Shown: positions 23,180 to 25,126 of the stretch, piece after piece | Numbering within the stretch: the stretch's first letter is position 1 | Layout of the letters: each line of letters opens with the position of its first letter | DNA from: a virus | Taxonomy: Duplodnaviria > Heunggongvirae > Uroviricota > Caudoviricetes | Virus record (IMG/VR): IMGVR_UViG_3300042275_000481 | Span: 102,172-127,461 of that record | DNA length: 25,290 nucleotides | Direction: 5' to 3' (one strand) | Notes under the pieces: generated by a model | The model's database searches: none | Told to the model about the DNA's origin: nothing | The model's input: the letters and a program-made list of their open reading frames with translations, nothing else | Position numbers and translations under genes: made by a program

Positions 23180-25126
23180 CTACTTGTTCAAATCGAGAAT
23201 CTGATTAATCAATGCTGAACGAGATTTGTTTTCTTGGAGCTTTTCAGTTCTTTCTCTAATATAATCAAATGCCTGGGTATTAACGCTTGCTAAATCGTCC
23301 ATCTTATTTGCTTGTCCAATAATAGACTCAATTCTTCGTATATCTTCTGAAGATGAAACTGTTTTGACATTGCTTGTCGATGGCATAGGGCTTATTTTGA
23401 ACTTTTTCTGTAAATTGGTTCCAAAGTGAAGCGCCCATCTGAAAATTAAATATGACATCAAGTTATCATCGTGTTCGCCTTCAGCATGTTCGATCTTACC
23501 ATTTGGTTTCTTTTCTAGTGTTTGAATATCTTTATATAATCTTCTTGAAACGATTTTGTCATATTCATAATCAACGATTTCAGGAAGTACATCAAACATC
23601 TGGTTACGTGTTACTCTATTTGTCTCTACACCATAAACGATAGCTTTCGTATTTTTCTTAACAGTAAACCCATCTTTTTGAGTTTTTTCACCTTTTTTGA
23701 CACGTTCTTCTCTATACATACGCGGTTCTATGATTCTATCTTTCATAAGATTATGAACGATATTTAGACCATAACTGTTGCGCTCTACAATTAGAATAGC
23801 GTTTCTAAACCAAGTGTGCATAAGCTCTTTTATTAGTTCTCTGAAGCTGTCTGTGTCAATAACATTACTTACAAACTCACCAACAACTCGGAAGTCATCA
23901 GGAGCAATGATTGTAATAACCGACCTGTCTCGGCTCAGACCACCTGCAACGTCACAACTTAGTATATAGTTTACTTTTAAGTCAGGTGTCTCAAAGAAAT
24001 CAACTGCATAACCATTAACAAAGATAGATGTGACTGGATCCTTAAGGAACTCGAATATCTTGTCTAATTGTTTTTCGTCAAATACTGAGGTCTCAGTTGA
24101 ACGAGGTCATTCAAGTAGTATCTCACGTTTAATTTTAGCCTCATTTCCTTGCATAAGCCTAAGCTGAGTTTTAAGTCACTTATCACTATGACCAAGTTCT
24201 TTATATGTAAATTCAACATGAAGGAAACTGTTTTCTGAATTCTTTTCAATATATTCCTCTAATTCTGGGTCTGTCATGTCAAAACACTCTAAACGCCATC
24301 TTGCAGCGTTATCAATGAATAGTTTTGCATATGCTCCTTGTTTTGTATCTACGTTATTTGGTGTTGTTGTAATAGTAATGCCATATGGAACACCGTTAGC
24401 CTTAGCATTCTTAGACGCTGCTGACCATGCAGGAAGGGCTGCTTCATATATAATATTATTTCTTGAGAGGAAGGCAAACTCATCAAAGTATATGTTAGAG
24501 GTTGTCATACCACGGCCAAGTTTATCAGCAGCTTCATCACTATTTGCAGCAGGCATTGCTTTTAATGTATTATTTCTATTAAATATAAGTTTTTCTTCAA
24601 TGTTATCACGATCTTTATGATTTGCAACCATACCAACTAACCATTGAGGGAGTCTCTCTTTAAGGTCTTTAAATTTCTTTAATGCGTCTTTACTATCTTT
24701 AAATTCTTTATTTGAGTATATAATATTAGTATTGGTACCAGCAAATAATAGAATCCAACTGTCATAGGCAATCTCTCCAATTGTTTTACCATGCTGACGT
24801 GGAAGAATAGTAATCTGATTCTTATTTTTTGTTTTAATATATGTTAGAGACATATTTCCAAGATTTAGTTTATATGGAATACCGTCAATTTGACCATCAA
24901 CAGGAATTCTTACAACTTCTCTTAAATAATACCATATATTAACTGTACACTCTTCAAATATTTCCAGTTTTTGTTTGTTTGTTAGATTCTTAGAATGAGG
25001 GTCCACTCCAACTAAACTCTCATTATGCAGCACTAGCATAAATTTGTTATTCTTTACATTACGCTTTCTTAGGTCTACTGAGGTTTTCAGAAAAGACCTA
25101 TTACGTGTGCTTATATCATAAATCAT
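23180..25126 (-). CDS. terL: Terminase large subunit, 648 aa with two in-frame TGA (24176, 24107) read as Trp
   Basis: ATPase part: ILPRQHGKT (Walker A), IYFDEFAF (Walker B), ITTTPN. Nuclease part: SCDVAGG, IVERNSYG, HDDNLMS. Single frame with no TAA/TAG. RBS GAAGGTGA before the ATG at 25126. Confidence 0.93.

Follow-up and report, generated by a model that had tools for sequence, protein, structure and literature searches.

The window analysed here, a stretch of 25,290 nucleotides forming the last 25 kb (positions 102,172 to 127,461) of the 127,461-bp IMG/VR record IMGVR_UViG_3300042275_000481 of a tailed phage (Caudoviricetes), carries on its minus strand a gene for the large terminase (TerL) whose reading frame contains two TGA codons. 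The locus raises the question of whether these codons end translation or are read as sense codons and, if the latter, with which meaning and by what agent. With considerable confidence we take the gene to encode an intact, functional large terminase in which both TGAs are sense codons for tryptophan (Trp), as part of a lineage-specific TGA-to-Trp recoding of late genes.

The TerL frame comprises 648 codons (Table 1) and holds two internal stops only, both of them TGA and 23 codons apart. A sequence-only reading of the window had described these codons as linking the ATPase and nuclease halves of one protein, and the peptides it gave for the two sites (GHSDK-stop-LKTQ and REILLE-stop-PRS), their coordinates and their spacing proved exact. 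Walker A, Walker B and the C motif TTTPN (residues 253-257) are encoded 5' of both TGAs, and the nuclease residues D392, E448 (in ERNSYG) and D553/D554 are all encoded 3' of both. These motifs align with those of T4 gp17 in a family profile search; a single-sequence search of the Protein Data Bank (PDB) with TerL gave no match. The nuclease residues align with those of the RB49 nuclease as well and are invariant in a set of 30 relatives, in which D215 is kept at 90% or more. TerL matches the Pfam family Terminase_6N (PF03237) with 25.5 bits (cut-off 22). A tblastn search of phage records yielded 617 matches, the best of which was the TerL of Bacillus phage vB_BpuM-BpSp (BpSp) with 41% identity, other top matches being Goe21, AR9, PBS1 and S6-like Staphylococcus jumbo phages.

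An AlphaFold model of the read-through translation (mean predicted local distance difference test (pLDDT) 87, predicted template modelling score (pTM) 0.79) found as its best PDB match full-length T4 gp17 (3CPE; E = 5.6e-23, 536 columns), a match that needs both TGAs to be read through. The modelled segment between the TGAs consists of helices 315-324 and 329-335 (pLDDT about 86-90), which join the ATPase to the nuclease, and R334, L337 and L338 within the segment are invariant in the alignment. TerL therefore shows the tested traits of a T4 gp17-type terminase, namely the ASCE ATPase motifs, three acidic nuclease residues and the two-domain fold. Under translation table 11, the N-terminal open reading frame (ORF) piece stops at the first TGA, and the first ATG, GTG or TTG past the second TGA is M436 (23821). 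Because D392 lies upstream of this first possible start, in a stretch that the ORF list had missed, the table-11 pieces cannot be a working split gene, as the sequence-only reading had argued. Judged from its sequence, this intact gene needs both TGAs decoded for the full two-domain protein, and packaging would hence depend on UGA decoding.

Regarding the meaning of the two codons, TerL was compared with 80 IMG/VR relatives of 30-100% identity. Column 340 is Trp in all 80 (79 TGG), whereas column 317 is Trp in 65 (62 TGG, 3 TGA) and Tyr in 15, which are distant ones. Both columns are invariant Trp in alignments with TerLs of Bacillus, Staphylococcus and Erwinia phages, and column 340 also in a third alignment; Trp at both sites in homologs was the check that the sequence-only reading had named. 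The probability that two random codons both land on any of the nine Trp columns is about 2e-4. In the nearest distinct relative (72% TerL identity, two contigs), five TGAs are in frame. The one at 317 is common to both genes, codon 340 is TGG in the relative, and TGA stands at 234, 277 and 564 where the window gene has TGG. In-frame TGA was not found in the TerL relatives at 63% and 54% identity, and among the 80 relatives it occurs only in the window phage and the 72% clade. The swap of TGA and TGG between relatives at Trp sites indicates, therefore, that the two act as synonyms in a narrow, recent subclade, and sequence comparison assigns Trp to the TGAs at codons 317 and 340.

Table 1. Coordinates of the TerL gene, its motifs and signals, and the homing endonuclease genes with sense TGA (window positions unless marked as genome positions).
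Feature	Position	Strand	Remark
TerL (large terminase) gene	23180..25126	minus	648 codons; ATG 25126-25124, stop TAG 23182-23180
TGA codon 317	24176..24178	minus	in frame, followed by C; assigned to Trp from homolog columns
TGA codon 340	24107..24109	minus	in frame, followed by C; assigned to Trp from homolog columns
22 codons separating the two TGAs (LKTQLRLMQGNEAKIKREILLE)	24110..24175	minus	conserved, two helices
Walker A LPRQHGKT, residues 108-115	24782..24805	minus	aligned to T4 gp17 LSRQLGKT
Walker B D215-E216 (FDEFAF)	24479..24484	minus	aligned to T4 gp17 IDECAF
First nuclease Asp, D392 (SCDVAGG)	23951..23953	minus	aligned to T4 gp17 LDCSEG
Nuclease HDD, D553-D554	23465..23470	minus	aligned to T4 gp17 YHDD
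Late promoter motif, AR9-type, AACAAATCATTA (AACA-N6-TA)	25151..25162	minus	24 nt 5' of the TerL ATG
Ribosome binding site GAAGGTGA	25132..25139	minus	direct reading of the sequence; 3' of the late motif
Homing endonuclease genes with sense TGA	713-1717, 6605-7243; genome 56549-57451, 60944-62026, 62834-63970

A dead gene copy, or an artefact of assembly or sequencing, could be suspected from the fact that table 11 breaks the gene, the JGI gene calls giving products of 287 and 213 aa (assemblies L104, L105, L107 and L108). The Logan calls, as under code 4, give one product of 648 aa (L106 and L109). Such an origin is nevertheless next to impossible, since contigs from three other wastewater runs span both TGAs with zero differences and separate JGI and Logan assemblies from further samples hold the gene at 99.98-100%. 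The segment between the TGAs is conserved, the gene has no further stop, frameshift or motif loss, and no second TerL was found in the 127 kb contig (the adjoining contig described below was not searched for one). The idea of a dead remnant, which the sequence-only reading had itself named as a way to be wrong, was not borne out in a phage that occurs in many samples. None of the sequencing runs listed for the sequence was an RNA data set. Selenocysteine and glycine (code 25), both of them known alternative meanings of UGA, have a similarly negligible chance of applying here, because the two columns are Trp or aromatic in all relatives. Neither TGA is followed by a hairpin resembling a selenocysteine insertion sequence or by a structure that would stimulate read-through (z about 0), a scan of the window against Rfam at gathering thresholds gave no match, and aragorn finds no UCA tRNA, a class that would include tRNA-Sec.

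The phage genome extends beyond the 127 kb contig. By way of the portal-like protein of the 72% relative, an adjoining record was reached, IMGVR_UViG_3300042275_000518 (189,901 bp; G006 in the following), the first 171 nt of which correspond to the last 173 nt of the 127 kb contig (genome C1:127289-127461). Four independent assemblies (L104-L107) span the junction at 99.9-100%. Given the overlap and the bridging assemblies, the genome is therefore at least 317 kb in size. A probe from the far end of the relative G002 matched only itself.

Across this genome, sense TGAs were scored by the codon usage on either side of each in-frame TGA and by homology to BpSp and related contigs. About 19 were found across 13 genes of the 127 kb contig and about 34 more in G006, so that recoding is genome-wide (about 50 codons in at least 317 kb) and late-biased. 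The recoded genes of the 127 kb contig are those of TerL, a tail-tube-like protein, several proteins without Pfam match that stand behind late-type motifs, and five homing endonucleases of the NUMOD4-HNH, GIY-YIG and CapR/zinc-ribbon types. The dependence on UGA decoding that the sequence-only reading had ascribed to TerL thus stands as far as TerL needs both of its TGAs, but it is not specific to TerL, given about 50 recoded codons in late genes. With 2/9, the share of TGA among the Trp codons of TerL does not exceed what other late genes show.

The late bias was assessed by means of promoter motifs. Two over-represented upstream motifs in the genome, AAATATATATTAT-N6-G and AACA-N6-TA/G, match the AR9 promoters of the early and the late class, respectively, for which consensus sequences have been published (PMC5312081), and genes were assigned to classes from these motifs and from operon position. 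Late-type motifs precede all 13 TGA-bearing genes of the 127 kb contig, 12 of them by the automatic rule and the thirteenth with its motif 127 nt upstream of the ORF. In this contig, late-class genes hold 19 sense TGAs vs 113 TGGs and early-class genes 0 vs 59 (Fisher p = 0.001); with both contigs pooled, the figures are 44 vs 265 for late-class and 0 vs 118 for early-class genes (p = 4e-7). Overall, TGA makes up about 8-14% of the Trp codons (19 set against 113 TGG if late-class genes are counted, and against about 230 TGG if all genes are). The internal TGAs of G006 lie in late-class or unclassified genes, one late-class gene having 11 and a large unclassed gene 7, whereas its early-class genes have TGA at gene ends only. 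One such apparent stop, in the early-class gene at G006 129585-130142, is a tandem TGATGA, behind which the sequence receives a non-coding score, and another occurs in a less clearly classed gene (G006 69674-70369). In a radical SAM gene (genome 96448-97185) of a seemingly early operon, TGA at codon 230 has T as its next base and overlaps, as ATGA, with the start codon of the following gene, and the 15 codons past it score as non-coding; this TGA is probably a true stop. TGA hence seems to end one early-class gene and two genes of less clear class and to stand for Trp in late genes, and the apparent stops give indirect support for a standard-code host.

Homing endonuclease genes carry 10-11 of the approximately 19 sense TGAs in the 127 kb contig and are more recoded than the core late genes. 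Paralogs of the zinc-ribbon type have TGA at the aromatic position of a repeated CGxE[W/Y/F] motif.

Two further readings concern the host. Native code 4 is found in the Mycoplasmatales and a few other reduced bacteria, and a phage of such a host would merely follow it in reading UGA as Trp, with no gate and no decoder of its own. This would agree with the finding that tRNA(UCA), release factor 1 (RF1) and tryptophanyl-tRNA synthetase (TrpRS) were not detected in the 317 kb, and with TGA being a rare stop codon in the phage genome; TGA stops are just as rare, however, in BpSp, which uses the standard code, and nothing can be concluded from their rarity. AT-rich code-4 organisms favour TGA for Trp, unlike the phage, in which it is the minor Trp codon. 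Early-class genes without sense TGA, several early or unclassed genes that seem to end at TGA with non-coding sequence behind it, and relatives at 63% TerL identity without sense TGA also speak against a native code-4 host, and known code-4 bacteria, being tiny and reduced, would be improbable hosts for a phage of more than 317 kb. We consider such a host unlikely.

Leaky stops deserve still less credit. Under this reading, ordinary host tRNA-Trp would read both UGAs at a low rate, which would keep TerL scarce or yield an ATPase-only product together with a little full-length protein. Both TerL TGAs are followed by C, and UGA-C is reportedly, after work of Poole and colleagues in 1995, the weakest termination context in E. 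coli. UGA is moreover the leakiest stop codon, but with natural read-through of about 1e-2 to 1e-3 (PMC4989110) two UGAs in series would give only 1e-4 to 1e-6, and the G006 genes with 11 and 7 internal TGAs would be impassable by leakage alone. Free swapping of TGA and TGG at conserved Trp sites and the lack of a stimulatory RNA structure 3' of either TerL TGA likewise argue against leakage.

Phage-timed decoding of UGA as Trp would call for a decoder. G006 encodes 24 tRNAs, which cover all 20 amino acids, and a transfer-messenger RNA (tmRNA); no tRNA was found in the 127 kb contig, nor in five short related contigs. None of the 24 tRNAs has a UCA anticodon, aragorn detected no such tRNA in the 317 kb, and neither a protein with the RF-1 domain (release factor) nor a TrpRS was found there. 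The single tRNA-Trp(CCA) of the phage (G006 99247-99320) has an unpaired C27.U43 at the top of its anticodon stem, which leaves a 4-bp stem with a 7-nt loop; the mismatch is flagged by both aragorn and Infernal, and the other 23 tRNAs have five standard pairs. The same tRNA also has U11-A24 and A59. In E. coli, 4-bp-stem tRNAs of such kind increase UGA read-through; C27A raised it about 2.5-fold and was essential within the C27A/G24A/G59A triple mutant (PMC13092985). The tRNA block with tRNA-Trp lies behind late-type motifs only and the tmRNA behind an early motif; in AR9, the single tRNA gene belongs to the late-expressed class (PMC5312081). A late, phage-supplied, near-cognate decoder would fit the late tRNA block and the features of the tRNA-Trp, and we name the phage tRNA-Trp(CCA) as the best, if weak and rather doubtful, candidate. 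It is accordingly put forward as a tentative proposal that UGA acquires the meaning Trp in late infection through the phage's own 4-bp-stem A24/A59 tRNA-Trp(CCA) in the late tRNA block, no cognate suppressor tRNA being involved.

The same anticodon arm was found in nine IMG/VR contigs including G006, with 27:43 always a pyrimidine-pyrimidine mismatch (C.U, U.U or U.C). An exact GTDB-wide search for the arm returned one Anaerolineae metagenome-assembled genome and no host clue. Because the standard-code relatives (AR9, Goe21, a Staphylococcus phage and three complete IMG/VR genomes) carry 0-1 tRNA each, with no suppressor among them, the tRNA-Trp cannot be compared within the family.

Several points weigh against late recoding by a phage-supplied decoder as set out here. 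The assignment of Trp at 317 and 340 comes from sequence comparison. The promoter classes are motif-based and transferred from AR9, with many genes left unclassified, and timing is read from the motifs. The scarcity of T after sense TGA (0/19 in the 127 kb contig, p = 0.017), a weak hint of possible competition with release factor 2 (RF2), is slight over three contigs (8/72, p = 0.03), the strength of the 0/19 not being held in G006. The far ends of the two contigs do not overlap and the genome is not closed, so that a tRNA(UCA) could sit in the gap, and an odd tRNA-like gene at G006 about 100551-100695 (minus; L140 14551-14695) gave no clear anticodon. As for the candidate decoder, a 4-bp stem is present in about 8.9% of the tRNA-Trp(CCA) genes of bacteria, for the most part in species with the standard code, and two complete jumbo phages served as controls, each of them read nearly completely (200 kb). 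One of them (G014) has the same arm, uses TGA for 12% of its stops and shows no convincing sense TGA; the other (G012) has the same arm and looks TAG-recoded, not TGA-recoded. The occurrence of this arm in phages that are not TGA-recoded and in standard-code bacteria means, therefore, that the feature is not specific to recoding.

Taken together, the phage is an AR9-like jumbo phage from wastewater, at least 317 kb in genome size, whose recoding is best explained as being limited to genes preceded by late-type promoters. During early infection TGA would most likely still mean stop, and late in infection UGA would be decoded as Trp by an agent that the phage supplies or induces, so that full-length TerL, many virion proteins and homing endonucleases would be made only after late UGA decoding has started. 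That decoding switches in time, and which agent does the decoding, are what we infer; a few early or unclassed genes that use TGA as a stop, together with the full tRNA set of the phage, point to a phage-supplied decoder or decoding change. The host-range lock that the sequence-only reading had offered finds no support. Its alternative, a timing gate on packaging, is plausible: the gate fits the late-only TGAs and a published model (bioRxiv 10.1101/2021.08.26.457843), yet it would duplicate late transcription and would not be specific to TerL.

Some observations on other parts of the two contigs and on related genomes are added for the record. Within the window, the gene at 21695-22498, a single 267-codon unit in all relatives, has an in-frame TGA at 22079-22081; its meaning cannot be checked by conservation because the position varies (Val or Ser) in relatives. 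The TGA at 19090-19092 (gene 19003-19341) is followed by 28 codons that score as coding and could be either stop or sense; read-through would make the gene overlap its neighbour by 32 nt. The odd tRNA-like gene of G006 combines a perfectly paired 7-bp acceptor stem with D and T arms and an encoded CCA, and about 72 extra nt (a small GUA-triloop hairpin and a long hairpin) replace the normal anticodon arm; it matches no Rfam family besides tRNA, and a Tyr(GUA) model obtained in the intron mode of aragorn was unconvincing. Weak tRNA-like matches at G006 105009-105276 proved to be an element resembling Y RNA and a poor fold of the Arg(UCU) type, neither of them UCA, and a further weak match in G006 is a truncated Phe. 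A partial match to YrlA (Y RNA-like family) lies among the tRNA genes at G006 about 105043-105105 (minus; 44 bits, below the gathering score). The tmRNA (G006 96376-96715, minus; tag ANTQELAFA) adjoins the cluster of 24 tRNAs and has an early-type motif directly 5' (96721-96735). The unrelated complete jumbo phage G012 (IMGVR_UViG_3300032007_000018, 200 kb) has 34 tRNAs including two tRNA(CUA) and a table-11 ORF coverage of 64%; it is probably TAG-recoded. Finally, IMGVR_UViG_3300042363_001848 (17.7 kb), whose TerL is 63% identical, has a uniform GC content of about 55% vs 32% in the window phage, a difference in composition that is unusually wide for relatives this close.

Practical consequences concern annotation in the first place: table 11 fragments the essential TerL gene and about a dozen others on the 127 kb contig, and more on the adjoining one. 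Recoding this sparse evades coding-density tests, and similar phages are probably under-counted. The lineage lends itself to study, since the two well-defined promoter classes of AR9-type phages allow the proposed coupling of genetic code to infection stage to be followed in the sequence itself. What the present analysis adds is the linkage of the contig to a tRNA-bearing one, the finding of no tRNA(UCA) in 317 kb, and a candidate decoder, albeit a non-specific one. Should the tRNA-Trp(CCA) indeed be the decoder, it would explain UGA decoding in many TGA-recoded phages that lack tRNA(UCA), and terminase and virion synthesis would depend on a decoding change timed by the phage. The genome offers both this candidate and a natural negative control, i.e., phages with the same arm that lack TGA recoding.

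Among known systems, the closest counterpart of the candidate decoder is the UGA-reading, 4-bp-stem tRNA-Trp(CCA) of Zinderia, which has been tested in E. coli (PMC13092985). The phage tRNA-Trp resembles it in the unpaired 27:43 (C.U), the 7-nt loop, A24 and A59, states that match the UGA-reading triple mutant C27A/G24A/G59A cited there. It differs in being phage-encoded, in being a candidate decoder only, and in that the same arm occurs in phages without TGA recoding.

With AR9, PBS1 and BpSp (Takahashivirus), the window phage shares the TerL family (38-41% identity), syntenic neighbour genes and promoter motifs of both classes (early, ATATATTAT-N6-G; late, AACA-N6-TA). These phages differ from it in using the standard code, with TGG at both sites, and in having no tRNA or a single tRNA-Asn; the TerL genes of AR9 and PBS1 are interrupted by introns, whereas that of the window is continuous.

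The phenomenon itself has its best-described counterpart in the code-4 gut phages of Borges et al. (bioRxiv 10.1101/2021.08.26.457843), i.e., the Agate, Jade and Topaz clades and some crAss-like phages, for which a TGA-Trp alignment in TerL was used to assign code 4 and recoding was proposed to regulate late genes. Common to these phages and the window phage are an in-frame TGA at Trp in TerL, recoding in structural or late genes with replication genes in the standard code, low GC content, rare TGA stops and standard-code close relatives. Of the traits of mixed-code phages with TGA-to-Trp recoding, TGA at Trp positions and late enrichment were found here; tRNA(UCA), which is typical but not strictly defining, was not, in line with its being detectable in only 35% of the genomes of Borges et al. 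and absent from about 65% (10.1101/2021.08.26.457843). Unlike those phages, the window phage comes from wastewater and belongs to the AR9-like jumbo phages, with a genome of at least 317 kb; it is sparsely recoded (roughly 10% of Trp codons) and has no detected tRNA(UCA), RF1 or TrpRS despite its set of 24 tRNAs and tmRNA. As AR9-like phages encode RNA polymerases of their own, early as well as late ones, recoding can here be matched to two explicit promoter classes, again unlike in those phages. In a jumbo phage survey of 2026 (PMC13037316), recoding is called on condition that coding density gains 10%, a test that the window phage would fail. Late-gene TGA-to-Trp recoding is a known phage phenomenon, and it is met here in a new AR9-like lineage.

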